A stretch of DNA of 19,980 bases from Acidimicrobiales bacterium (GCA_037968895.1 JBBKWJ010000208.1:1-19980); one strand, 5' to 3'; positions 5,572 through 18,698 are shown, counted from the first letter of the stretch. Numbers and translations: made by a program. The notes: generated by a model not told the origin, from the letters alone.

Positions 5572-6714
5572 ATGACGACTGATCTCGCCACTGACACTTC
5601 CCGCCGAACAATGAGTGCGTGGATTCGTGGACCGCTCGTTGTCGGTCTCATCTACCTTTTTCTCATCGGTGTTTCGTCGTTGGAATCCGGAATCAAGGTG
5701 ATGGGCGAGGACACGCAGGAACGTCTCTTCTCGAGCGTGTCCAATCCGCTAGCTGGCCTTTTCGTAGGCATTCTTGGCACGGTGCTGGTCCAATCTTCCT
5801 CGGCAAGCACCTCGGTGATCGTCGGTCTCGTTGCCTCGAAGGCCCTTGGTGTCGAAGACGCAGTACCTATGGTTATGGGTGCAAACATCGGTACCACGGT
5901 GACAAACACGCTCGTCTCGATGGGTCACGTTCGGCAGTCGAACGAGTTTAAGAGAGCGCTGGCCGCGGCAACAGTACATGACTTCTTTAACGTGCTCGCC
6001 GTTGCAATTCTGCTTCCATTCGAACTGCTCACTGGCCGGCTGACCTGGGTCGCGGAATCAATCAGCGGGCGACTGGTCGGCTCAGCTGGCAGCGACTGGA
6101 AGAGCCCGGTGAAGGCGTGGGTTAAGGAACCAGTCTCGCTGATTAAGGATTTCTGGTCTGCGGTCGGCTTAGAGACAACCTGGCTCGGAATTTCATTGCT
6201 GGTCACCGGTCTTGTCGTCATTCTGCTTGCGCTCACGATGATCACCAAGAACATGCGAGTCCTTGTCGCCGACCGTGTAGAGCGTTCGTTGAATGCGGTG
6301 CTCGGACGGGGAGGCGGCCTCATAGCTATGGCACTTGGTCTCGTCATTACGGTCGCGGTCCAGTCATCGAGCATCACAACATCAATTCTCATTCCACTGA
6401 CCGCCGCTGGTGTATTGTCGCTGCGCAATGCATACCCGGTTACCTTGGGCGCCAACGTCGGAACCACGATCACTGCGTTACTCGCAGCCATGGCGGCCAG
6501 CGTTCCAGAGGCGCTCACCGTTGGCCTCGTACATACAACCTTTAACGTTGCTGGCATCGTGTTGCTCTACGGATTCAAACCAGCTCGTGACATCCCGATT
6601 AGGCTCGCTGAGGGTCTCGCCGAGATGGCAGTTGATCAGAAACTGTGGGCCCTCGCATATGTAGTTGGTCTATTTGTGGTCGTGCCAGTCGTCGGTCTCG
6701 CAATTCTCCGCTGA
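5572..6714 (+). CDS. Na+/phosphate cotransporter family protein (Na_Pi_cotrans, NptA/YjbB-like transmembrane module)
   Basis: The 380-aa polytopic protein carries the duplicated family motifs LVQSSSASTSVIVGLV...GANIGTTVTN and AVQSSSITTSILIPL...GANVGTTITA. Confidence 0.8.
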   Translation: MTTDLATDTSRRTMSAWIRGPLVVGLIYLFLIGVSSLESGIKVMGEDTQERLFSSVSNPLAGLFVGILGTVLVQSSSASTSVIVGLVASKALGVEDAVPMVMGANIGTTVTNTLVSMGHVRQSNEFKRALAAATVHDFFNVLAVAILLPFELLTGRLTWVAESISGRLVGSAGSDWKSPVKAWVKEPVSLIKDFWSAVGLETTWLGISLLVTGLVVILLALTMITKNMRVLVADRVERSLNAVLGRGGGLIAMALGLVITVAVQSSSITTSILIPLTAAGVLSLRNAYPVTLGANVGTTITALLAAMAASVPEALTVGLVHTTFNVAGIVLLYGFKPARDIPIRLAEGLAEMAVDQKLWALAYVVGLFVVVPVVGLAILR

Positions 6715-6727
6715 GAGAGGAAATCAA

Positions 6728-7405
6728 GTGGTATTTGAATTTTTTCGCCGTGGTGGTGAACCAGGCATCGATCACATCCAGAAGCGCATGATCGAAATGC
6801 TCGCCGATTGCCGGCATTCGTTCGACCTTGCTACTGACGCGTTGCTGACTGGTATCGATCCAGAGAGTGTCGCCGATGAAATCCGAAGCACTGATCACCG
6901 GATCAACGCGGCCGAGAAGGAGCTGCGATCTGAGCTCGTCGTGCACGTCAGCGTGCAGGGCGCCGGCGACATCGGCACGGTACTCGGCTACACCTTGCTC
7001 ATCAAGAAGCTCGAGCGAATCGGTGACCAGGCGAAGAACATCCTCGACTTGGCCGAAGAGGGTGTTTCATTTTCGAATGCCGCCGATCTCAACGAACTAA
7101 TGAAGATCAGGCGGCAGGTCTCCGAAATGTTTGGACAGGTTGGGCTTCTGCTCGTTGCGCCGGTGACGTCCGATGTCGAAGACAACTGGAAACACGTTGA
7201 CGAGCTTCGTCAGTTCTGCGAAGGCAAGGTCCGGGAGTATCTGCATTCTGAACGGCCCGGCCACGAAGTGGTTCCGCGAGCAATTTACTACCGGTATCTG
7301 AAGCGCATCGTTGCCAATCTCGGTGGTGTTGTCACTACATCGACCGAACCGCTGACAAACCAGGACTATCGTGACGACGGCGAAACCGACATCGACGACG
7401 ACTGA
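6728..7405 (+). CDS. PhoU-domain protein (phosphate-transport regulator-like), probably partnered with the upstream Na/Pi cotransporter
   Basis: The PhoU-like motif LERIGDQAKNI is present with a two-helical-repeat organisation. I place the start at GTG 6728 (VVFEFFRR...) behind an AGAGAGG RBS 7 nt upstream, rather than the ATG at 6665, which overlaps the transporter gene by 50 nt. Confidence 0.65.
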   Translation: MVFEFFRRGGEPGIDHIQKRMIEMLADCRHSFDLATDALLTGIDPESVADEIRSTDHRINAAEKELRSELVVHVSVQGAGDIGTVLGYTLLIKKLERIGDQAKNILDLAEEGVSFSNAADLNELMKIRRQVSEMFGQVGLLLVAPVTSDVEDNWKHVDELRQFCEGKVREYLHSERPGHEVVPRAIYYRYLKRIVANLGGVVTTSTEPLTNQDYRDDGETDIDDD

Positions 7406-7451
7406 TCTTGATTACGCGTGACCTCGCCTCGTCTGGCAGAATAGCTCTGGT

Positions 7452-7871
7452 ATGAGCGACCCCAAGCCAGCCCAGTTTCGGAAAACTAAGACAGGTAAGT
7501 GGGCCGTCATGGCGCCCGTCGAATCACTTGAGAAGGCACTCAAGGAAGATGGCGGCGTGGTGCAGGTCTTGAAGAAGTCGGGCGACTATTCGACCTTCAC
7601 CGTTGGCTCGCTCGGTAAGGCATTTGACGTCGACGGCGAACAGATGTGTTACGGATACAGCCCTGAAGACTCCGAAGACTCAGACGGTACTCGTGCTACG
7701 TCGTCACGATCAGCATCGCAACAGTCGAGCACAGGCGAATGGCCGGCCGCCTCAGACGCAGATCCGAGTCAACCGGGCACTGTGAATCTCGACGCTCCAC
7801 CCGCCGATTCGTCCGAACCAATGCCTGAATTTCAGGGCGGTTCAGACGACGAATGGGACGGCGGCTTCTAG
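7452..7871 (+). CDS. Hypothetical protein with a basic N-terminal domain and a long acidic Ser/Asp/Glu-rich tail ending DDEWDGGF
   Basis: The 139-aa ORF shows coding-like codon usage and no recognisable family. It sits 120 nt upstream of the NfeD-like gene on the same strand. Confidence 0.4.
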   Translation: MSDPKPAQFRKTKTGKWAVMAPVESLEKALKEDGGVVQVLKKSGDYSTFTVGSLGKAFDVDGEQMCYGYSPEDSEDSDGTRATSSRSASQQSSTGEWPAASDADPSQPGTVNLDAPPADSSEPMPEFQGGSDDEWDGGF

Positions 7872-7993
7872 CCGTCGGACATTTCTCGGGAACTCTCCGA
7901 CTCGTCTCGTCGTTTGCGCTACATCAGGTTGACGGCAATACTTCGGTGACTGGCGGCACATCTTGGCCACTGCACCAGATTTGGGGGAGTCGG

Positions 7994-8611
7994 GTGGAGC
8001 GTTTCATCGAAATAGCATTTGGCATGCCAACGGCGCTCTTTACGACGCTGTTGCTGATCTCGCTCGGCTACTGGATTGTCAGCCTTGTAAGCGGGATTGA
8101 CAGCGGAGCGGAGGTTGGCCTCGATGCCGATGTTGATACTGACTTCGAGGCGTCTGCTGGCTTACTGGCGGCACTTGGGCTTCACCGCATCCCATTCAGT
8201 CTGGTGATCACGGTGGTGTCGCTCACGGCGTGGCTTATCTCTCTCATTCTTGTGTTTCTCGTGACCGATGGAGGATCGACCTCACTATGGTTGGCTCTAC
8301 CAATCATCTTCGGTTCCCTGATCGGTGGACTGCTCGTAGCAAGTCCGGTCGCTCGCCTCGCGGCGCCCTTGTTCGCAGTTCACCCCGCGATGCATAGAGA
8401 AGATCTCATTGGTCGGGAATGCGTTGTCAAGACCGGTCATGTCGATGAAAGTTTCGGGCAAGCCGAGGTGGTCGACGAAGAATACGGAACTCATATTGTT
8501 CAGGTGCGGTGCCCGGCTCCCAATGAGCTGCGCTCAGGCACGAAGGCACATCTCATCGATGTCAATAACGACGGTGAGTTCCAGATCGCAGCAGGACTGT
8601 TGGACTTCTAG
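7994..8611 (+). CDS. YqiJ/NfeD-like inner-membrane protein (DUF1449-like) with a C-terminal OB-fold
   Basis: The protein has two or three TM helices followed by a soluble beta-rich C-terminus, LIGRECVVKTGHVDESFGQAEVVDEEYGTHIVQVRCPAPNELRSGTKAHLIDV, which is comparable to the E. coli YqiJ C-terminus. It lies immediately upstream of the flotillin gene, as in yqiJK and nfeD-floT pairs. The start is chosen as GTG 7994 with a GGGGGAG RBS (ATG 8024 is the alternative). The track's 7853 start overlaps the previous gene. Confidence 0.65.
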   Translation: MERFIEIAFGMPTALFTTLLLISLGYWIVSLVSGIDSGAEVGLDADVDTDFEASAGLLAALGLHRIPFSLVITVVSLTAWLISLILVFLVTDGGSTSLWLALPIIFGSLIGGLLVASPVARLAAPLFAVHPAMHREDLIGRECVVKTGHVDESFGQAEVVDEEYGTHIVQVRCPAPNELRSGTKAHLIDVNNDGEFQIAAGLLDF

Positions 8612-8672
8612 GACTGCACAGAGCTAGTCCTGCACACACACTCGAAGTAAGAAAAGAAGGATAAGGGGTCAC

Positions 8673-10589
8673 ATGGATACGGTAATAATCGGCATTTTGG
8701 TCGTCGTAGCGGTGGTGTTGCTTGTATTACTCGCAGTCGCAGCGATGATCTCGACGTTGTACAAGAAGGTCCCTCAAGGTAAGGCGTTGGTCGTTTCGAC
8801 GATGAAGACAGTTGCCGTCACCTTCACCGGCCGAGTTGTCCTTCCGGTGGTGCACAAGGCCGAGGTGATGGACATCTCAGTGAAGACGATCGAGATCGAT
8901 CGTCGAGGCGCTGAAGGGCTTATCTGCCAGGACAACATTAGGGCTGACATCAAGGTCAACTTCTTTGTCAGGGTGAACAAGGCCGAAGAGGATGTCATCA
9001 AGGTTGCTCAAGCCATTGGTTGCAACCGGGCTAGCGACATTGTGACTCTTGAGGAGCTATTTGCTGCCAAGTTCTCCGAAGCGTTGAAGACCGTTGGCAA
9101 GCAGATGGAGTTCGTCTCGCTCTATACCGAGCGGGCTTTATTCCGTGATCGGATCATCGCCGTCATTGGCACCGATCTCAACGGGTACGCGCTCGAAGAC
9201 GTCGCTATCGACTATCTCGAGCAGACTCCCCTCAATCAGCTCGATTCGAACAACATTCTTGACGCCCAAGGCATTCGTAAGATCACTGAGCTCACTGCGA
9301 TAGAGCGCGTAGCCACCAATAACGCGTCGAACGACGAGTCGAAGCAGATAACGGCCAAGAACGTGGAGACACGGGAAGCAGTGTTGGAGCTTGAGCGTCA
9401 GCAGGCCGATGCCGAAGCGCGTCAACGTCGCGAGGTCGAGACCGTCAAGGCTCGTGAGCAAGCCACAATTGACACCATCGTCGCCGAAGAAACACTTCGA
9501 GCTGAGATGGCTAATCTCGAAGTTCAACAGAAGATTGGGATCGAGCAAGAGAACCTACAGCGCGAGGTCGAAGTCGCAGGGAAGAACCGCGAGCGAGTGC
9601 TGGCGGTTGAAACCGAGCGCGTGCAGAAGGCACAAGAGCTTGAAATGATGTCTCGCCGAGTCGAGACACTGTCGGCCGAGAAGTCGTTGGAAGAAGAGAA
9701 GGGCACGATTGCCGAGATTCGGCGGAGCCGGGTCGCCACAGAGAAGACCGTCGCTGAGCAAGAAGAGTCAATCGAGACGCTTCGTGTTGTCGAGCAAGCG
9801 AATCGGGAGCGGCAGGCAATCGTGGTCATGGCCGAGGGTGAGGCTCAGAGCCTCCTCGTCAAAGACATTAAGAAGGCTGAGGCCGCGGAAGAAGCGTCCC
9901 GCCATGAAGCGACGCGCCAGCTCACTCTGGCCAAGGCCGAAATGGAGGCCGCCGATCTTTCAGCACAAGCGAAGATTCGACTAGCTGAAGGTGTGAAAGC
10001 CGAATCAGCTGCCATCGGACTCGGCGAGGTCGAGGTTGACCGGGCAAAGGCAAACGCAATTCGGGAAACCGGAATCGCACACGTCGACGTCGAGCGAGCA
10101 CAGGCCGAGATTGTTCGCGAGCTCGGAACCGCCGAAGCCTCCGCCATAGAGGCCAAGTTGAAGGGCGAGGCCTCTGGTCTGACCGAAAAGGCTGAAGCCA
10201 TGAAGAAGCTCGAAGGCGTTGGACAAGAGCACGAAGAGTTCGTACGCGAGCTTGAAGCAGATACCAAGGTGCGACTTGCCGAGGTCGAGGCTCGAGTCGG
10301 TGTCGCAACGGCTCAGGCCGACGCGATGAAGACCGGTCTCGAGAATGCCAACATCGATATTGTCGGCGGCTCGGACATTTTCATTGACCGACTCGTCGGC
10401 TCTATTTCGGCTGGCAAATCAGTCGACGCATTCGTTGACTCATCGGAGGTCGCGGCCACCGCGGCAGCCCCGTACCTAGAAGGCAAGGAAGACCTCATCG
10501 CCAAGATTGGTGAGGCAGTATCAGGTATGGGTGCTGACGGCATCCGTGACCTCACTGTGGCTGATCTGCTTCGCAAACTCGGCAAGTGA
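8673..10589 (+). CDS. Flotillin-like SPFH/band-7 protein (YqiK/FloT family) with a long E/A/R-rich coiled-coil C-terminal region
   Basis: An N-terminal TM helix (IIGILVVVAVVLLVLLAVAAMI) is followed by LYKKVPQGKALVV and an SPFH domain, then roughly 350 aa of EA-rich heptad repeats. An AAGGATAAGGGG RBS precedes the ATG. The architecture matches E. coli YqiK and B. subtilis FloT. Confidence 0.85.
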   Translation: MDTVIIGILVVVAVVLLVLLAVAAMISTLYKKVPQGKALVVSTMKTVAVTFTGRVVLPVVHKAEVMDISVKTIEIDRRGAEGLICQDNIRADIKVNFFVRVNKAEEDVIKVAQAIGCNRASDIVTLEELFAAKFSEALKTVGKQMEFVSLYTERALFRDRIIAVIGTDLNGYALEDVAIDYLEQTPLNQLDSNNILDAQGIRKITELTAIERVATNNASNDESKQITAKNVETREAVLELERQQADAEARQRREVETVKAREQATIDTIVAEETLRAEMANLEVQQKIGIEQENLQREVEVAGKNRERVLAVETERVQKAQELEMMSRRVETLSAEKSLEEEKGTIAEIRRSRVATEKTVAEQEESIETLRVVEQANRERQAIVVMAEGEAQSLLVKDIKKAEAAEEASRHEATRQLTLAKAEMEAADLSAQAKIRLAEGVKAESAAIGLGEVEVDRAKANAIRETGIAHVDVERAQAEIVRELGTAEASAIEAKLKGEASGLTEKAEAMKKLEGVGQEHEEFVRELEADTKVRLAEVEARVGVATAQADAMKTGLENANIDIVGGSDIFIDRLVGSISAGKSVDAFVDSSEVAATAAAPYLEGKEDLIAKIGEAVSGMGADGIRDLTVADLLRKLGK

Positions 10590-13500
10590 GCACTTATGAC
10601 CTCCTTCGTAGTCGGCTTGAGGCGAGCGCAACTGCGCTCGCCGAGCGCGCTGGTTCGCTCAACAAGCGTCGAACCGAGGTCTTTGGGTCGTCCGTATTCG
10701 CGTTGAGGGGAACCGAGCGGCTCCGTAGCGAAAACGCAAACGTGCCCCGCGATGTTTCAAGTATCGACGGCCAACTCATTGTTGCGTACAACCCGGCACC
10801 GGGAGCGCTGACGTCAGTCAAGCCAAACGACATTTTTGCTATCCACAATCTGGAGCGTTCGTCGTCAGGCGAGATGGTACTTAACGCGAACCCGAACGGG
10901 CTCGATGCGTCTGTCCTTGACGACGCCCAGTTTCGACGCGACTTCGACGAGCTTCATACGTACTACAAAGACGCTCGAGTCCAGCAGTTGTATCGTGTTG
11001 CGAACCGCATGCTCGCTGTATTCCGCATTGGGACAGCGCGTTCTGACATCCGAGTTCTGAGATGGTCAGTCAATCCTGACGGGTCACTCCAGTACCTCGA
11101 CGCTCGCGGCGAACGTGATCACAAAGCGCCTGCTCGCCACGATGTCGACTGGACGTTGGTGACTCGGGAAGACCATGTCGGCGAGTCACACGTCTCGCTA
11201 TCGGACCGGGTACTGATTAACCCTCTCAACGGCACCATTGAGCTGATGATGCCCGACCGTTCGCTTCTGCTGAGCGATCCGGTGAACCATGCCGACCAGT
11301 CACTTGCGGACTGCACAATCCGGTGGGCAACGTGTGGCGACCTCATCGTCATCGACCTGTTGCCGTACGGCGAGCTCGACCATCGCTACTACGTCGCGAA
11401 TTTGCTCGATCACACTGCCACCAGAATTGATGAACTTGGTCAGGCGTTTCGCCAGTTGCCCGAGGGACAGGGTTTCATCCATCCGAGAGGTGTCTTTCTC
11501 AAGAATGGACAACACCAGTCGTTCGATCTCGAGGCCGACCAGATGGAACTACTTGAGGTTGTGCGATCACCCAATGGCGAGGACATGTTGTATGTCTTCT
11601 ACGAGCAGGAATCAGGACGGTCGATCCTCCTGCCATACAACGTGGTTCGCCAGGAGGTCACGACTCCACTTCGGTGCGATGGGCATTCGATCTTTGCTGA
11701 CGGAACCATGGTGATGTTCCGCGAAGAACATGAGCCCACCCGAATTCACCCAATGCAGATTTGGGAGACCCCATTCGCCAGCGACGAATGGTTCGCCGCT
11801 CAACCTCGCGAGATCTCCGACCTTGACCGAATAGGAAATGCTGCGCTCGTGCGAGGCATTGCTGACGCGCTTGCGCTTTCGAGACTCATTGGCAGCATTG
11901 AACCCTCGTCGGAGCTCTACGGTGACCTCCTCGGCTCCGTGGGGCGCTTCCTCGACCAGCATCATTGGGCAGAGTCAGTCGATGTTGGCAACCTCGCTGA
12001 ACCGGCACGAGAGATGCAGGTTGTTGCTGGACAGGTCATTGACGAGTTCGAACGAGTGCTCGAGGTTAAAGCCGTGGCAACGGCGACGCTCGACGAAGCG
12101 CGTCAGACGTTCAATCAGCATCACGAAGAAGAACGAATTTCGCCGCCGGCGACCACAGAAGCGTTCATCAATCTGCTAGGGCTTTATCGCCACGATCTGG
12201 GCCATCTTCACTCGATCCGAGACCAGCCTGAAGTCGACGTGGCCGCTGTCGACGAACTAGTAACCGAAGCAACCGCAGCCCACGCCGCAACGGCTCAGAA
12301 GGCGGCCGGACACCTCGCAGGCGACGGAGCATTTGCTCCTTACCACGAACGATTAGCGCGGATCACAGGTTCAATCGACGAAGCTGGGTCGTCAATCGCA
12401 GCGCGTGAGCTCCTTGAGGAAGTCGACGGGGTTGCAACCTCAATGGACGTGGTTTCTTCCACCGTTGGCGACCTTGTTGTTGACGACCCCCGAGTGCGAA
12501 CTTCAGTTCTCGAACAGGTGTCGCAGGTTCTCGCTTCCTTAAATCAGGTGCGAGCTCGTGTCGAGACGAAACAAGAATCGCTGATTGAGGCAGAGACCGG
12601 AGCGTCGTTCGCAACCGAGCTTGGGCTCTTTGGTCAGTCGATTGCATCGGCACTGAGCAGAGTCGATGAGCCGAAGGGGTGCGACGAAGCGTTGGGGCGG
12701 CTTCTTCTGCAGCTCGAACAGCTTGAGACTGCTGGTCCGCGCAGCGACGAGCAGATCCGTGAGCTTGAACTTCGTCGCGAGCAGGTAACCGAAACGGTCT
12801 CGGCGCGGCGCCAGAAACTCGTCGATGAACGGGAGGCCAAAGCACAACGGCTCGTTGGAGCCGCCGAGCGAACACTCGAACGGATCACAGAACGTGCGGC
12901 GGCACTTCCGTCCGTGGACGATGTGAACGGGTTCTTTGCCGCTGATCCCATGACTGCTCGCGTCCGCGACCTGACAGACCAGCTTCGCGAGCTCGGCGAG
13001 GCCGTAAAGGCGGACGAACTCAAGAGCCAGTTGGGGGCGGCTCGCGACAATGCGGCGCGCCTCATTCTCGATCGAGCCGAACTCTTCGACGGCGAGCTCA
13101 TCAAACTTGGTCGCCATCGTTTTAGCGTCGACAAACAGCGCCGCGAACTGACGATCGTGCCCCGAGACGGACGTTTACAGGCTGTCTTGACCGGAACAGA
13201 CTTCGCACTCGACCTCCACGATGAGCGCCTAGAAGCGCACCGTGACCTGTGGAGCGAACCGCTGGTGTCGGAGTCGCGTGACCTCTACCGGGGTGCATAC
13301 CTCGCGGCCGGCATCCTTGACGACGCCTTGAGTTCTGGACAAGTGCCAATGTGGGAAGACGTCGTTCGCGAAGCAGTCGACTCTCGTCTCGACGAGGGCT
13401 ACGACCGCGGTGTGCATGACCACGATGCAGTCCTCCTCGTATCGGCGTGGGCAGCAGGCGCAGCGACTGCTGGCCCTCTCCTGTATCCAAGCCGTGTTCG

Positions 13501-15262
13501 GGCCGAGGCGCTGTGGCACTGGTTCGACGAACTGAGCGAGGAACAGCGGGTCGATTGGATCGGCCGTGGCAAGGCGGCAGCCGAGCTCGGACAAGCAGTT
13601 GAGCCCGTTCTCGGCAGCTACATGGCAGACGAACTCACCGCATCTGCGGGGTTCGCTCCGTCGATGTCTCACGAGACCGCGCGCCATGTGCGGCTGTTTT
13701 CCGGCGACCAGAAAGTGCAATCGGTGCTTACGTCGGCCAGCCAAAATCCACGAGCGTATCGAGAGGTACTTGAGCGGTACGTCGCCGCTTCGGCACCCTA
13801 CGACATCGCAGCCGAGATTGTCGTCACGCTCCTGTTCCCAGAGCCTGAGCGCCGTATTCGCACGATCGATCTCGACTGCACCGTCAGCGGTCTGCTAGGA
13901 CGTCACCCAACGATTCAGGATGGCACGCTCAGAGTGTCTCTCGACGAGCTGCTTGACCTGTCCCGCCACCAACGCAACGATGTTGCGCCCCGTCACCGGG
14001 CATTTGTGGCGGCTCGGCGTGAAATCGTCGACCAGCTCAAGGGAAACCTCCGCGTACATGACCTTGTGCCGCACGTGCCAGAAGGCTTTGTGCGAAACCG
14101 GCTTATCGACGAGGTGTATCTCCCGCTCATTGGCGGCAACCTGGCTCGCCAGATCGGCACTGTCGACGACACATCTGCTGCACGATCGGGCCTTCTGATG
14201 CTGCTGTCGCCTCCCGGTTACGGCAAGACAACACTCATTGAGTACGTGGCTGATCGCCTAGGTATGGCGCTAGTTAAGGTGTCCGGACCGGGGTTGGGAC
14301 ACGATGTCACATCGCTTGACCCGGCTCAGGCGGCGAGTAGCACGTCTCGTCGTGAGCTCGATCGAATCAACATGGCGTTTGCGATTGCGTCAAACGTGAT
14401 CCTCTACATCGACGACATTCAGCACACGAATCCCGAGTTTCTACAGCGCTTCATTTCACTCACTGATGCTCAACGAAGAGTCGAGGGGGTGCTTGAAGGC
14501 GAATCGCGCACGTTCGATCTTCGTGGAAAGCGCTTTGCCGTCGTCATGGCCGGCAATCCGTATACAGAGTCGGGGGAGCGGTTTCGTATTCCCGACATGC
14601 TGGCAAACCGTGCCGATACCTACAACCTGGGTGATGTGCTGGCAGACAGTGAGCGTGCCTTTGCGCTTAGCTACATCGAGAACTCTCTCACATCCAACCC
14701 GGCTGTGACCCGAATCGGGCGTGACCTCGATGCGTTCATGGCTGGCCTGGATGGTGGGTCGGTCGACGAAGCGGCGCTGACCCAGCGCTATTCTGCGGCC
14801 GAACAGAACGATATTGTTCGCCTGCTCCATCACCTCAGAACTGTCCAGCAGACGGTTCTGACAGTGAATAGGCAGTACATCGCGTCTGCGGCGACAGGGG
14901 ATGCATATCGCACCGAACCGCCGTTTCTGCTGCAAGGTTCATACCGAAATATGACGAGATTGGCAGCACAGTTGCTGCCAGCGATGACAGAGGATGAAGT
15001 TGAGGAGATTCTCGACGCTCACTACACGGCTGAGTCTCAGTCATTGACTGGAGCGGCCGAGGCGAATCTTCTGAAGCTGGCGCAACTTCGAGGCAAGATG
15101 ACGCCAACCCAAGAGACTCGCTGGAACGAGATCATCACAGTCTTCCAGCGAAAGCAGCGCCTTGGTGGTGGCGACGACGACCCTGTTGCGCGCGTCGTCG
15201 CCGCGATAGATCAGGTCTCCGATGCCCTGAGCGGTCGAGTCAACCACTCTCCGTACGATTAG
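10586..15262 (+). CDS. Giant (1558 aa) flotillin-associated protein with a C-terminal AAA_5 (MoxR/McrB-like) ATPase domain; function unknown
   Basis: The GTG start overlaps the flotillin TGA stop (aaGTGAgc). A Walker A motif LLMLLSPPGYGKTTL lies at roughly nt 14210-14240. A Walker B motif VILYIDDIQH lies at roughly nt 14395-14425. Sensor-1 is AVVMAGNPY, and a MoxR-like motif is FRIPDMLANRADTY. The central region, roughly aa 600-900, is long, helical and coiled-coil-like. The first ~400 aa match no family I recognise. Confidence 0.8.
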   Translation: MSTYDLLRSRLEASATALAERAGSLNKRRTEVFGSSVFALRGTERLRSENANVPRDVSSIDGQLIVAYNPAPGALTSVKPNDIFAIHNLERSSSGEMVLNANPNGLDASVLDDAQFRRDFDELHTYYKDARVQQLYRVANRMLAVFRIGTARSDIRVLRWSVNPDGSLQYLDARGERDHKAPARHDVDWTLVTREDHVGESHVSLSDRVLINPLNGTIELMMPDRSLLLSDPVNHADQSLADCTIRWATCGDLIVIDLLPYGELDHRYYVANLLDHTATRIDELGQAFRQLPEGQGFIHPRGVFLKNGQHQSFDLEADQMELLEVVRSPNGEDMLYVFYEQESGRSILLPYNVVRQEVTTPLRCDGHSIFADGTMVMFREEHEPTRIHPMQIWETPFASDEWFAAQPREISDLDRIGNAALVRGIADALALSRLIGSIEPSSELYGDLLGSVGRFLDQHHWAESVDVGNLAEPAREMQVVAGQVIDEFERVLEVKAVATATLDEARQTFNQHHEEERISPPATTEAFINLLGLYRHDLGHLHSIRDQPEVDVAAVDELVTEATAAHAATAQKAAGHLAGDGAFAPYHERLARITGSIDEAGSSIAARELLEEVDGVATSMDVVSSTVGDLVVDDPRVRTSVLEQVSQVLASLNQVRARVETKQESLIEAETGASFATELGLFGQSIASALSRVDEPKGCDEALGRLLLQLEQLETAGPRSDEQIRELELRREQVTETVSARRQKLVDEREAKAQRLVGAAERTLERITERAAALPSVDDVNGFFAADPMTARVRDLTDQLRELGEAVKADELKSQLGAARDNAARLILDRAELFDGELIKLGRHRFSVDKQRRELTIVPRDGRLQAVLTGTDFALDLHDERLEAHRDLWSEPLVSESRDLYRGAYLAAGILDDALSSGQVPMWEDVVREAVDSRLDEGYDRGVHDHDAVLLVSAWAAGAATAGPLLYPSRVRAEALWHWFDELSEEQRVDWIGRGKAAAELGQAVEPVLGSYMADELTASAGFAPSMSHETARHVRLFSGDQKVQSVLTSASQNPRAYREVLERYVAASAPYDIAAEIVVTLLFPEPERRIRTIDLDCTVSGLLGRHPTIQDGTLRVSLDELLDLSRHQRNDVAPRHRAFVAARREIVDQLKGNLRVHDLVPHVPEGFVRNRLIDEVYLPLIGGNLARQIGTVDDTSAARSGLLMLLSPPGYGKTTLIEYVADRLGMALVKVSGPGLGHDVTSLDPAQAASSTSRRELDRINMAFAIASNVILYIDDIQHTNPEFLQRFISLTDAQRRVEGVLEGESRTFDLRGKRFAVVMAGNPYTESGERFRIPDMLANRADTYNLGDVLADSERAFALSYIENSLTSNPAVTRIGRDLDAFMAGLDGGSVDEAALTQRYSAAEQNDIVRLLHHLRTVQQTVLTVNRQYIASAATGDAYRTEPPFLLQGSYRNMTRLAAQLLPAMTEDEVEEILDAHYTAESQSLTGAAEANLLKLAQLRGKMTPTQETRWNEIITVFQRKQRLGGGDDDPVARVVAAIDQVSDALSGRVNHSPYD

Positions 15263-15304
15263 CCACGGCGCGGGACGCCGCAGTGCACTGTCTACAGTCA
15301 CGGC

Positions 15305-16372
15305 ATGAATTCCCCCTACTCTCGAATACCTTCGTCCGCTGCTCTTCTCGTTCTACCCCTGGTCGCGGCAGCGTGTGCCAGTAATGTGGATGCTGCGGCC
15401 GTGTCGACTCCAGTAACGACCGAGGTTGTCGAGACGGCCACTACTGCGGTGCAAACTACCGAGACGCCGAAAACGGTCGCTCCAGTCACAGAGTGCGGGA
15501 CGCCGGGCGTCGCCGAATACACGCTCGAAGAATCTGGAACGAGTTACGCCGTCCGTGTGTTTTTGCCCCGAGCGATCGACGCTGAGGCACCCGCTCCCGT
15601 CGTGCTGAATTGGCATGGTCTTGGTTCGGAGGGCTCAGTCCAAGCAACCTTCACTGCGTATGAGATGCTCGCCGAGTCCAAAGGTTTCATTGTGGCGAGC
15701 CCGACAGGAGTCCCCGCCCCTGGTGATGATCGAAACTCATGGGAGTTGATTCAGCTCGACACACCAGACCGCGACGATGTTGCCTTCGCGTCAGCCCTAA
15801 TTGACGACATCACTGAGCGCTTCTGCGGTGATGTAACCCGCGTCTATTCCACCGGAATGTCAAACGGCGGACTGTTTACGAGCCGCCTGATCTGTGACCT
15901 TGCCGACAAGATTGCAGCCGCGTCGTCGGTCGCCGGACTCACCCATCCCGACGAATGCGAACCATCTCGAGCGGTGCCGTTCATCGCATTTCATGGCACC
16001 GACGATGGCGTCGTGCCGTACGACGGAACCAGAGGCTCAAGCAGCCTCCTACCTTCCGGAGCCCCGCCAGAACTCGTCGAGTTCTTCTCACAGGTCATGC
16101 CCGATGAGTTTGCCGAGTTCGCGGCTGACGCAGGTTGCTCGGCGGAGCCGGTCGTGACTGAAATTTCTGGAGAACTCATTTCGTACGATTATCAGGGTTG
16201 TGCGAACGACACTCCGATGACGTTCTACGAATTTATTGGTGGCGGGCACACATGGCCCGGCTCACCCTTCGCTGCGATCCTCGAAGCGAGCGGACTTGGC
16301 TATACGACGCTCGATATCGACGCCACGGCCGCCTCGTGGGAGTTCTTCCAGCAGCACACGCTCAACGATTAG
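15305..16372 (+). CDS. Secreted esterase lipoprotein, PHB-depolymerase family (LpqC-like, COG3509)
   Basis: A signal peptide with a lipobox-like ...LVAAAC is followed by a Thr/Val-rich linker. The Ser nucleophile is in GMSNGG (GxSxG). The motifs FHGTDDGVVPY and GGGHTWPG are typical of LpqC-type esterases. Confidence 0.7.
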   Translation: MNSPYSRIPSSAALLVLPLVAAACASNVDAAAVSTPVTTEVVETATTAVQTTETPKTVAPVTECGTPGVAEYTLEESGTSYAVRVFLPRAIDAEAPAPVVLNWHGLGSEGSVQATFTAYEMLAESKGFIVASPTGVPAPGDDRNSWELIQLDTPDRDDVAFASALIDDITERFCGDVTRVYSTGMSNGGLFTSRLICDLADKIAAASSVAGLTHPDECEPSRAVPFIAFHGTDDGVVPYDGTRGSSSLLPSGAPPELVEFFSQVMPDEFAEFAADAGCSAEPVVTEISGELISYDYQGCANDTPMTFYEFIGGGHTWPGSPFAAILEASGLGYTTLDIDATAASWEFFQQHTLND

Positions 16373-17200
16373 CCTTGGCGAGCAGCCTGTTGGCGACGAA
16401 GCTCGCAGCGACCGAAGCGACGCGTACATGCGAGCGAGGGGAGTGTCGTCGGAGACGCCGACTGCGCCGTACACCTGAATTGCCTGATCAACGACAGTAG
16501 TAGCCGTCTGCATCACGAGAACTTTAATGGCCGACATGTCGGGCGCCGCTGCCTTGTCGCCCTCGACGTCCATCTACCACGCAGTGTGCAACGTCATGAG
16601 TCTGGCCGAATCAATGTTGATTCGGGCGTTTGCGATCCATTCTTGGATGTTCGCTCGAGACGAAACGAGTCCGCCGAACGTGGAGCGACTGTCTGCCCGT
16701 TCGCACAGGAGCGAGAGGGCCTGTTCCGCGACGCCGATGGTCCTCATGCAGTGCTGCACTCTCGCTGGTTGCCTAGGAGTGCGTCGGCTGGCAAACGTAC
16801 GTTGTTGAGTGCCAATTCGGTGTGTCCGTCGGCGTCCAGGTAACCAAACTTCGGCAGATTGCGAACCACGGTGAGGCCTGGAGTATCTCTGGGCACGACA
16901 AACACGGAATGTCGGCGGTGTCGTGACGCGGCGGGATCCGACCATCAAGTTGGGGCGTCAGCCACTGCTCCTTCTGGGCTGCGCTCCCATACAGGATGAG
17001 AGCATCACCGTTGATACTTGATGGCGCGTCGCAGTTGGTTGCCTCTTGGGCCAGCCGACTTGTGCCGAGGATCTCAGCGAGCGGGGCGTAGTCGAGGCTC
17101 GTCAGTCCAGGACCGTAGTTCGGAGGTCTGACGCCAGCGTGAGGGAACGATTCGAATGCGTGAAATCCATCAGTGGTCCTCCGTGGCGTGCCGTCAATCT
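16340..17200 (-). pseudogene. Acyl-CoA dehydrogenase pseudogene (internal deletion, frameshift and in-frame TAG)
   Basis: The minus-strand translation gives ACAD blocks in three different frames: RPPNYGPGLTSLDYAPLAEILGTSRLAQEATNCDAPSSINGDALILYGSAAQKEQWLTPQLDGRI, then about 90 aa missing (no RSCFAMTEP block), then SVFVVPRDTPGLTVVRNLPKFGYLDADGHTELALNNVRLPADALLGNQRE, then a frame change to ...RVQHCMRTIGVAEQALSLLCERADSRSTFGGLVSSRANIQEWIANARINIDSARLMTLHTAW, then an in-frame TAG at about 16574, then MDVEGDKAAAPDMSAIKVLVMQTATTVVDQAIQVYGAVGVSDDTPLARMY. The N-terminus is truncated by a stop, and both ends are approximate. Confidence 0.7.
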
Positions 17201-17267
17201 AGTGTGGCGGAAGTATCCGCAAGCTAATCCGGTTAGAAGACTGACCATCCCGCAGATAGGACGCGCT

Positions 17268-18698
17268 TTGAGCAACAACCAATACGATCTTGTGGCAATT
17301 GGTGGGGGAACGGCCGCCCTCGTCGCCACTATCGCTGCTGCGGGCCTTGGGGCCAAAGCCGTCCTAATTGAAATGGAGAAGCCAGGGGGCGACTGCCTCT
17401 GGACTGGTTGCGTGCCAAGCAAGGCGCTTCTGTCCGCGGCTGCGTTGGCAAGCGATATGCGTAACGCGAAGTCAGTTGGACTGAGCGCAGTAGAACCAGT
17501 GATCGACTTTCCTGCAGTCATGGCACACGTCAAAGGCGCGCAGGCCGTTATTGAGCCCCATGATTCGGCTGAGCACCTCGAGGCAGAAGGAGTCGAGGTC
17601 ATCATCGGCCGAGGCGAGTTTCTCGGCCCAGGCAAGATCAAGGTTGGCGACCGAGTGATCGAGTTTCGTTCGGCTCTCATCGCGACCGGTTCGCATCCTG
17701 TGGTTCCGCCAATTCCGGGGCTGGTTGACGCGGATCCGCTGACCAGCCATAACGTCTGGGACCTCAAGGCCCTCCCAGCCCGTCTTGTCGTCCTTGGCGG
17801 GGGGCCGATCGGTTGTGAGCTTGGTCAGGCGTTCGGTCGACTCGGATCGAACGTCACATTGATCGAAGCCGAAGCAGGCCTACTTCCCCGTGAGCCAAGC
17901 GAGGTGGGCGCCTATCTGGGCGAGGTCCTTCGCTCCGAAGGCATCGATGTGCGAGTCGGTGTTCGAGCCGAGTCAGTCGAGGCCCATGAAGGGGCATACC
18001 GAGTTAATCTGGCCGACGGAACCTCGGTTGACTTCGACAGGATTCTCGTGGCTGTCGGCCGCCGGGCCAACTCTGCGAACCTCGGACTTGAGCTTGTCGG
18101 TGTAGACGTCGACGAAAGAGGCCACGTCGTCGTCGACGACACGATGCGGACTACTGGCGACAACATCTTCGCTGCCGGAGATGTGACAGGGAAGATGCCG
18201 TTTACGCCCGTCGCCGCACACCAGGCCAGGGCCGTCGTGGCGAACGCCCTGTTCAAAGCGCGTAAGAAGGCCAAGTACGACCAGATCCCCTGGGTTACGT
18301 TCACTGCTCCAGAGATCGCAAGGGTAGGGCTCGACGGCGCAGCAGCCCGTGAGAAGTGGGGATCCAAGGCGATCGTCGAGCGGTTCGACTACGCCAACCT
18401 CGACCGAGCCATAACGCACGGACGGACAGGAGGCTGGGTCGAACTCGTCGGTGACAAGAAGCGAAGAATTGTTGGCGCGACCATCGTTGGTGAGGCGGCA
18501 GGGGAGAGCATCGCCGAGATCGTCGCCTTCATGACTGCAGGCGCCAAGATCGACACACTGTCGACGACTGTGCATGCCTATCCAACCTTTTCCGAGGGGG
18601 CGAGCCGAGCAGCAAATAGTGTTCTCGCGGACCGCTACTTCAGTCCGAGAGCCAAGCGAGTTAGTTCGATGGTCCGACGAGTACTTCGTCTGTTCTAG
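17268..18698 (+). CDS. FAD-dependent pyridine nucleotide-disulfide oxidoreductase, class I (dihydrolipoyl dehydrogenase / mercuric reductase-like)
   Basis: The product has the Rossmann motif YDLVAIGGGTAA, the redox-active disulfide GGDCLWTGCVPSK, a second dinucleotide fold LVVLGGGPIGCELGQ, and the C-terminal dimerisation His-Pro motif HAYPTFSE. I place the start at TTG 17268 (AGGA plus 6 nt) because the 74 aa added by the track's ATG at 17046 have no family similarity and run antisense over the ACAD pseudogene. Confidence 0.75.
   Translation: MSNNQYDLVAIGGGTAALVATIAAAGLGAKAVLIEMEKPGGDCLWTGCVPSKALLSAAALASDMRNAKSVGLSAVEPVIDFPAVMAHVKGAQAVIEPHDSAEHLEAEGVEVIIGRGEFLGPGKIKVGDRVIEFRSALIATGSHPVVPPIPGLVDADPLTSHNVWDLKALPARLVVLGGGPIGCELGQAFGRLGSNVTLIEAEAGLLPREPSEVGAYLGEVLRSEGIDVRVGVRAESVEAHEGAYRVNLADGTSVDFDRILVAVGRRANSANLGLELVGVDVDERGHVVVDDTMRTTGDNIFAAGDVTGKMPFTPVAAHQARAVVANALFKARKKAKYDQIPWVTFTAPEIARVGLDGAAAREKWGSKAIVERFDYANLDRAITHGRTGGWVELVGDKKRRIVGATIVGEAAGESIAEIVAFMTAGAKIDTLSTTVHAYPTFSEGASRAANSVLADRYFSPRAKRVSSMVRRVLRLF

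Follow-up and report, generated by a model that had tools for sequence, protein, structure and literature searches.

The closest described relatives of the locus analyzed here are the operons reported by Ravi et al. (mSystems 2024, PMC11237479; preprint 2020), in which a protein summarized as "beta-propeller + coiled-coil + AAA ATPase" is encoded beside YqiJ/YuaF and band-7/flotillin genes. These operons are CesT/Tir-PspA operons with three added genes; some Proteobacteria also carry a PLD (HKD) gene in the operon, and 'related abbreviated operons' without PspA are more widely distributed. The authors proposed a chaperone-like, ATP-dependent role in the assembly of sub-membrane complexes or in membrane remodelling. 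In the sections of that article that deal with the operon, its description runs to a few sentences and is computational, without experiments. We analyzed a stretch of 19,980 nucleotides (nt) from an Acidimicrobiales bacterium (GCA_037968895.1, JBBKWJ010000208.1:1-19980; hereafter the window) that encodes a giant ATPase of this architecture, preceded by a flotillin gene and a yqiJ-like gene. The window agrees with the operon of Ravi et al. in the order of the domains, in both partner genes lying upstream and in having the genes on one strand. Apart from the CesT/Tir-PspA dyad and the PLD gene, which are missing from it, nothing essential sets it apart from the published account. The window holds the 'abbreviated operon' form described there, with the same architecture and gene order.

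Pfam and NCBI already list the family and the operon type, which were described computationally in 2024, and the protein is a new member. A first-pass annotation, made by a model from the sequence alone, had considered the family not assignable, but it has an entry as Pfam DUF3686 and is named 'DNA repair ATPase' at NCBI, besides being described by Ravi et al. It is catalogued but functionally uncharacterised, and the protein was not placed in a well-characterised family of known function. A literature search under the domain names of the family returned nothing relevant, and the SPFH survey of Hinderhofer (2009) does not mention an ATPase partner. We took the gene context, that is the invariant linkage to a flotillin gene, as decisive for the reading that we favour, in which the protein is a flotillin-associated, MoxR-class AAA+ remodeller of sub-membrane scaffolds or of a dedicated client. 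We give this reading about an even chance.

The yqiJ-like, flotillin and ATPase genes

The three genes lie on one strand.

7994-8611, plus strand: YqiJ/YuaF (NfeD-like) membrane protein, identified by orthologue alignment and by hhalign to YqiJ
8673-10589, plus strand: flotillin-family SPFH (band-7) scaffold protein, 638 amino acids (aa), identified by hhalign to YqiK and by Pfam Band_7
10586-15262, plus strand: the whole ATPase, a beta-propeller, a helical rod and an AAA+ module, with DUF3686, DUF7902 and AAA/AAA_5 domains

The linkage of these genes was assessed by searching 84 related genomic and metagenomic loci by tblastn with the window proteins. Every locus with upstream DNA (80/80) had a flotillin orthologue, sharing 43-77% identity, as the gene immediately before the ATPase gene and in the same orientation. 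When all open reading frames (ORFs) of 82 loci were clustered, exactly three conserved genes were recovered: the flotillin-like gene in 80 loci, the ATPase gene in 75 and the gene for the YqiJ-like membrane protein in 71. No fourth conserved neighbour was present in the 82 clustered loci, the remaining ORFs being shadow or lineage-specific. The GTG start of the window ATPase shares GTGA (10586-10589) with the TGA stop of the flotillin gene, and the same 4-nt stop/start overlap occurs in 24 other loci. Because of this strict linkage and of the profile matches to YqiK and YqiJ given below, the module is yqiJ-like / yqiK-like / giant ATPase. The first-pass annotation had missed this conserved operon.

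An N-terminal transmembrane segment and an SPFH domain are present in the 638-aa flotillin, together with a long coiled coil rich in Ala and Glu. E. coli YqiK matched the profile of the flotillin orthologues over 420 columns (hhalign 99.8%, E 3.2e-28), while Pfam Band_7 matched 7 of 22 orthologues with a best E of 7.7e-8. Neither the protein nor its profile had a match in the PDB. The flotillins of the module are ~630-750 aa long as compared to 553 aa for E. coli YqiK, and the hhalign alignment ends at YqiK residue 443. The C-terminal region of these flotillins carries a highly conserved motif, ...NAxIDIVGGDGxFFDRxVxAIxxGKxVDGFV..., which we regard as a candidate docking site for the ATPase.

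The YqiJ-like protein consists of an N-terminal transmembrane segment, an acidic loop, two further transmembrane segments and a C-terminal OB-like domain. E. coli YqiJ matched this family with an hhalign probability of 83.5% (E 8.4e-6), and Pfam YqiJ_OB and YqiJ_N each matched 2 of 20 orthologues. The mechanically called ORF at 7853-8611 (252 aa) is over-extended for this gene. The true start is probably the GTG at 7994, giving a protein of 205 aa, since the N-terminal consensus of the family, MxxFLxAxLxFPTV, matches VERFIEIAFGMPT. With this start the overlap with an ORF at 7452-7871 disappears. A scan of positions 7300-16600 for promoters and terminators returned sites no commoner than expected by chance and was uninformative on the operon boundaries.

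The same flotillin linkage would be expected if the module were a client-processing machine, in which the flotillin and the NfeD-like protein corral damaged or unassembled membrane proteins and an AAA+ ring extracts or unfolds them. Such a machine would correspond to FtsH inside HflK/C, or to the m-AAA protease with prohibitin, but would have no protease. The pairing of an SPFH scaffold with an AAA+ machine is established for HflKC-FtsH and for prohibitin with m-AAA, and the window shares this coupling, which here is genetic. However, FtsH is a transmembrane-anchored, classic-clade AAA protein fused to an M41 protease, whereas the window ATPase belongs to the MoxR clade by its modelled fold, carries a propeller and has neither Peptidase_M41 nor any other protease domain in Pfam. 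There is no protease among the conserved neighbours either, and the window flotillin is YqiK-like and not HflK/C-like. No transmembrane anchor was noted in the ATPase, although a formal transmembrane prediction was not run.

Domain anatomy and AAA+ clade of the ATPase

The 1558-aa ORF, which the first-pass annotation had placed at the position given above, was present on the plus strand with a GTG start. More than 1400 homologues share its full-length architecture, and the gene is therefore real, far beyond chance. The query coverage was 98-100% for most of the more than 100 homologues in the full-length alignment. The closest homologues were 59% identical and apparently came from Acidimicrobiales metagenome bins. 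Family members are about 1550-2030 aa long, the window protein lying at the short end. We also prepared a cross-phylum alignment in which 12 sequences represent at least 7 phyla, with members from Actinomycetota, Gammaproteobacteria, Bacteroidota, Deinococcota, Acidobacteriota, Planctomycetota, Myxococcota and a Clostridia bin. The parts of the protein, all on the plus strand, are as follows.

10592-10684, plus strand: N-terminal helix before the propeller, aa 3-33
10700-11767, plus strand: beta-propeller of about seven four-stranded blades, aa 39-394, the core of DUF3686
11783-12022, plus strand: helical segments, aa 400-479, the C-terminal end of DUF3686, modelled beside the N-terminal helix
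11996-13072, plus strand: segmented helical rod, aa 471-829, 11 helices of 10-57 residues by DSSP on the model
12329-12577, plus strand: DUF7902 inside the rod, aa 582-664, by Pfam
13097-13216, plus strand: small beta-sheet domain in the model, aa 838-877, relatively conserved with 52% mean identity across phyla
13289-13834, plus strand: all-helical domain in the model, aa 902-1083, the least conserved part with 29% mean identity
14099-14893, plus strand: AAA+ module with an alpha/beta core and a lid, aa 1172-1436
14942-15244, plus strand: C-terminal helical extension, aa 1453-1553, from the model and from conservation

Pfam DUF3686 (PF12458) covered aa 18-460 with an E of 2.8e-141, and DUF7902 matched its segment with an E of 3.5e-23. 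The N-terminal region was modelled by AlphaFold as a beta-propeller with a predicted local distance difference test score (pLDDT) of 91. The N-terminal ~400 aa, earlier left unassigned, thus have both a family and a predicted fold. The same region had been described as containing Cys and His, but the protein has only 5 Cys in total, 3 of them N-terminal, and no Cys/His cluster that would make this a feature. C364 was the sole invariant Cys among close homologues and was not invariant in the cross-phylum alignment. A Cys/His metal cluster was ruled out on the same count and the lack of a clustered motif.

The stretch that had been taken for a coiled coil of several hundred residues (aa 600-900) is helical, but the helical part extends over aa 471-829 and is broken into 11 helices. 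In the model this region is a helical rod or bundle and not one continuous coiled coil. The model of aa 461-1558 had a pLDDT of 83.5 and a predicted template modelling score of 0.48, so that the domains are confident while their mutual arrangement is not.

The catalytic motifs named in the first-pass annotation were all found. Walker A (SPPGYGKTT) occupies aa 1208-1216 (nt 14207-14233), Walker B (ILYIDDIQH) aa 1272-1280 (nt 14399-14425), sensor-1 (VVMAGNPY) aa 1319-1326 and RIPDMLANRADTY aa 1334-1346. The key residues are K1214 of Walker A, D1276-D1277 of Walker B, N1324 of sensor-1 and R1342, a candidate arginine finger; a pre-sensor-1 beta-hairpin lies at aa 1298-1311. The C-terminal extension starts inside an invariant QGSYRNM motif with a candidate sensor-2 residue, R1454. 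The whole chain contains exactly one GK[ST] P-loop, at aa 1213, and one hhhhD[DE] Walker B. Pfam found one AAA domain, with AAA (37.8 bits) and AAA_5 (30.1 bits) both exceeding their cut-offs at the C-terminus, in agreement with the proposal of a single C-terminal AAA_5 module.

In the cross-phylum alignment K1214, D1276, D1277, N1324, R1342 and R1454 were invariant (12/12). The AAA core had 68% identity with 43% invariant positions, whereas identity in the rod and the propeller was 29-41%. That the catalytic residues do not vary across phyla suggests that the ATPase is likely an active enzyme. The Walker B of the window protein reads ...IDD... instead of the usual ...DE..., and the DD pair is common to all 12 sequences.

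The names given to the family, 'DNA repair ATPase' at NCBI and 'ATPase involved in DNA repair' in the Pfam text for DUF3686, would imply a protein like SbcC, Rad50 or SMC that acts in DNA repair and has a coiled-coil arm. A weak compositional match of aa 643-862 to the SMC-like protein LmuB (E 5.5e-5, PADLOC) points the same way. We consider this very improbable. Walker A and Walker B share one C-terminal AAA+ domain and are not split as in an ABC head, the N-terminal part is modelled as a propeller and contains no P-loop, and both invariant partners are membrane proteins; neither a nuclease nor a DNA-binding domain was found, nor a neighbour of this kind. We suspect that the label stems from coiled-coil similarity to SbcC-type proteins. 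We rejected an SMC/SbcC identity because of the P-loop topology.

The closest solved folds to the AAA+ module were CbbQ (PDB 6l1q) and NorQ (PDB 9qh4). The fold is nearest to MoxR-class structures and includes the pre-sensor-1 hairpin that goes with membership of this class, and the assignment of the module to the MoxR-class clade is thus supported structurally, on the model. The MoxR-like label of the first-pass annotation therefore holds for the fold, but the profile of MoxR proper, Pfam AAA_3, stayed below threshold on the ATPase (13.3 bits against a cut-off of 27, E 0.075). Sequence searches of the PDB with the protein and with the family profile returned only matches in the Walker A region, to Rix7, NVL, Rpt3 and RuvB. 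The matches to RuvB were confined to the P-loop region and lay far under the cut-off, which also counts against a DNA repair role.

The suggested likeness to dynein and midasin extends to a shared AAA+ clade and no further. In midasin (Rea1/Mdn1) and dynein six AAA modules per chain form the ring alone, while the window ATPase has one module and would have to oligomerise; it also has no MIDAS domain, linker or microtubule-binding stalk. Foldseek gave good E-values against dynein, but the template modelling scores were 0.14 and 0.05, and global similarity to dynein was rejected.

Some MoxR-type ATPases serve single targets: CbbQ/O serve Rubisco, NorQ/D serve NO reductase and RavA/ViaA serve their own targets. 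With CbbQ and NorQ as nearest solved folds and an AAA_5 match exceeding its threshold, the protein could serve the maturation of one specific enzyme complex, by cofactor insertion or by activation, the flotillin being a mere membrane platform. We found this improbable, as the protein has no VWA/MIDAS domain or linked partner of this type, no conserved gene for a target enzyme lies nearby in the 82 loci and the AAA_3 profile is sub-threshold. Moreover, CbbQ and NorQ are stand-alone modules of ~260 aa that act through a VWA/MIDAS partner (CbbO, NorD), whereas the window ATPase has ~1170 residues of propeller, rod and helical domains before its module, a DD Walker B and no linked VWA partner.

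The AAA+ module also bears on the client-processing machine introduced above. The profile match in the Walker A region resembles the classic-clade unfoldases Rix7, NVL and Rpt3, but the best structural matches are MoxR-class remodellers and not threading unfoldases. In addition, the loop that follows strand beta-2 (beta2-alpha2 loop, VKVSGPGLGHDVTSLDP) is conserved and has no aromatic pore-loop residue. Since an aromatic pore residue is missing and the fold is MoxR-like, we prefer a remodeller of a dedicated partner over a general extractase or unfoldase, and client processing of the FtsH kind seems to us unlikely.

Distant relatives and flanking genes

Members of the ATPase family are patchily spread over at least 7 phyla. 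The propeller domain had 13 matches in a plasmid collection, which also contains chromids and mislabelled chromosomes, and zero homologues in phages. A Hymenobacter plasmid has the order Tir-like chaperone, PspA/IM30, DUF1449 (YqiJ family), a 722-aa protein (the flotillin) and 'DNA repair ATPase'. On the megaplasmid pQBR103 of Pseudomonas fluorescens (NC_009444; L086 974-14178) the SPFH-ATPase pair comes after a PspA-containing cluster made up of YjfI (CesT-like), PspA, a rhomboid protein, DUF2491, DUF350, DUF1190 and a glutathionylspermidine-synthase-like (GspS-like) gene, in which a polyamine cluster comes behind YjfI and PspA. This arrangement merges two classes of PspA operon that Ravi et al. 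treat separately. The window ATPase is homologous to the ATPases of these PspA-containing loci (Hymenobacter, pQBR103). In Vibrio campbellii (NZ_CP050465; L088 13822-15600) a PLD-family (PLDc_2) gene begins at the ATPase stop and is followed by telA (toxic anion resistance). The PLD gene fits the PLD variant of Ravi et al. (PMC11237479), whose passages on the operon do not mention a TelA link. In Deinococcus the three core genes alone recur, and the window likewise has no PspA or CesT gene.

The presence of the module on large plasmids and chromids, its patchy distribution and the PLD-family gene with TelA after the ATPase in Vibrio led us to weigh an anti-phage or conflict system. Here the scaffold and a MoxR-like NTPase would sense infection and trigger abortive infection at the membrane, in some versions through effectors like PLD; conflict systems with MoxR-like ATPases are known. 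We hold this to be a poor prospect. No copies were found in phages, and PADLOC-DB 2.0 gave no significant match, only the coiled-coil match to LmuB, P-loop-only matches to IetA and mad8, and none for the partner proteins. The flanks in the window and in the sampled loci are housekeeping or metabolic and not defence islands. The conservation of the AAA core and of the flotillin is atypical of fast-evolving defence genes, and the three-gene core has no obvious effector.

The flanks of the module are not conserved; in the window it is preceded by a Na/Pi cotransporter and PhoU and followed by a PHB-depolymerase-like esterase and an FAD disulfide oxidoreductase. The Na/Pi-cotransporter ORF (5572-6714, plus strand) and the PhoU-domain ORF (6665-7405, plus strand) overlap by 50 nt in different frames. 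YjbB-type proteins have both domains in a single chain, and the overlap may stem from a frameshift, from a split of the gene or from an error in the sequence. Just 5' of the module an ORF at 7452-7871 (plus strand) encodes 139 aa of acidic, low-complexity sequence with no Pfam or PADLOC match, and none of the 82 related loci has a counterpart. The ORF may or may not be a genuine gene. The esterase gene (15305-16372, plus strand) starts 42 nt 3' of the ATPase gene on the same strand. It has a counterpart in just one further locus (L015) and is therefore probably outside the module. The ORF at 17046-18698 (plus strand) encodes an FAD-dependent pyridine nucleotide-disulfide oxidoreductase whose profile matches begin at about residue 77, so that either the protein has an extended N-terminus or its TTG start was called too far upstream.

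A possible role at flotillin scaffolds

Single-module AAA+ proteins assemble into rings, and in the remodeller reading the AAA+ domains of the ATPase would do likewise. The propellers and rods would then project as arms that dock on a cytoplasmic flotillin assembly, on PspA/IM30 polymers or on both. ATP hydrolysis would remodel these scaffolds, that is assemble, open or dismantle them, or would act on a specific client held by them, under envelope stress. The oligomeric state, the contact with the flotillin, the substrate and the role under stress in this scheme are what we infer from the anatomy and the gene context, including the repeated association with PspA/IM30 and further genes of membrane stress in distant lineages. 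Functionally, the scheme comes closest to the action of Vps4 on ESCRT-III and to that of the MoxR ATPases CbbQ and NorQ, each of which has one dedicated partner. As with Vps4/ESCRT-III and PspF/PspA, an AAA+ ATPase is encoded with membrane-remodelling scaffolds, PspA/IM30 being adjacent in distant relatives. The Vps4/ESCRT-III analogy was also drawn by Ravi et al. (PMC11237479) in their treatment of the operon. Vps4 itself is a classic-clade AAA protein with an MIT domain and has no likeness to the window ATPase beyond the AAA+ fold.

Several observations count against a scaffold remodeller. The linkage fits equally well an ATPase that is a client or cargo of the flotillin assembly. MoxR-class ATPases usually act with a VWA/MIDAS partner, but Pfam found no VWA domain in the ATPase, and among the linked genes of the 82 clustered loci no VWA partner gene was a conserved neighbour. 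The DD Walker B may mean slow or regulated hydrolysis. PspA was not detected by tblastn in 84 other loci, a search that weak homologues of this divergent protein may escape; since PspA is absent from the window and from these loci, the PspA link rests on the distant relatives and on the published survey. The literature searched held no experimental work on any family member.

A more specific form of the remodeller reading, which we put forward tentatively and as the less probable outcome, is that the protein is the first dedicated ATP-driven motor for the assembly and disassembly of flotillin (SPFH) cages. A hexameric MoxR-class ring would hold the cage with its six propeller-tipped arms and open or recycle it, and would be to flotillin what Vps4 is to ESCRT-III. 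If this were true, bacterial flotillin assemblies would be actively remodelled, and the three genes would offer a simple system in which to study this. Tractable hosts are found among the carriers, such as Myxococcus xanthus, Streptomyces, Vibrio campbellii and Proteus mirabilis. Correcting the misleading name 'DNA repair ATPase', which stands in thousands of annotations, would be of practical value as well. As a giant, highly conserved AAA+ ATPase whose gene is translationally coupled to a flotillin gene in at least 7 phyla, it is an obvious candidate for the energy-consuming component that is missing from accounts of what bacterial flotillins do and of how SPFH cages are opened, loaded or recycled.

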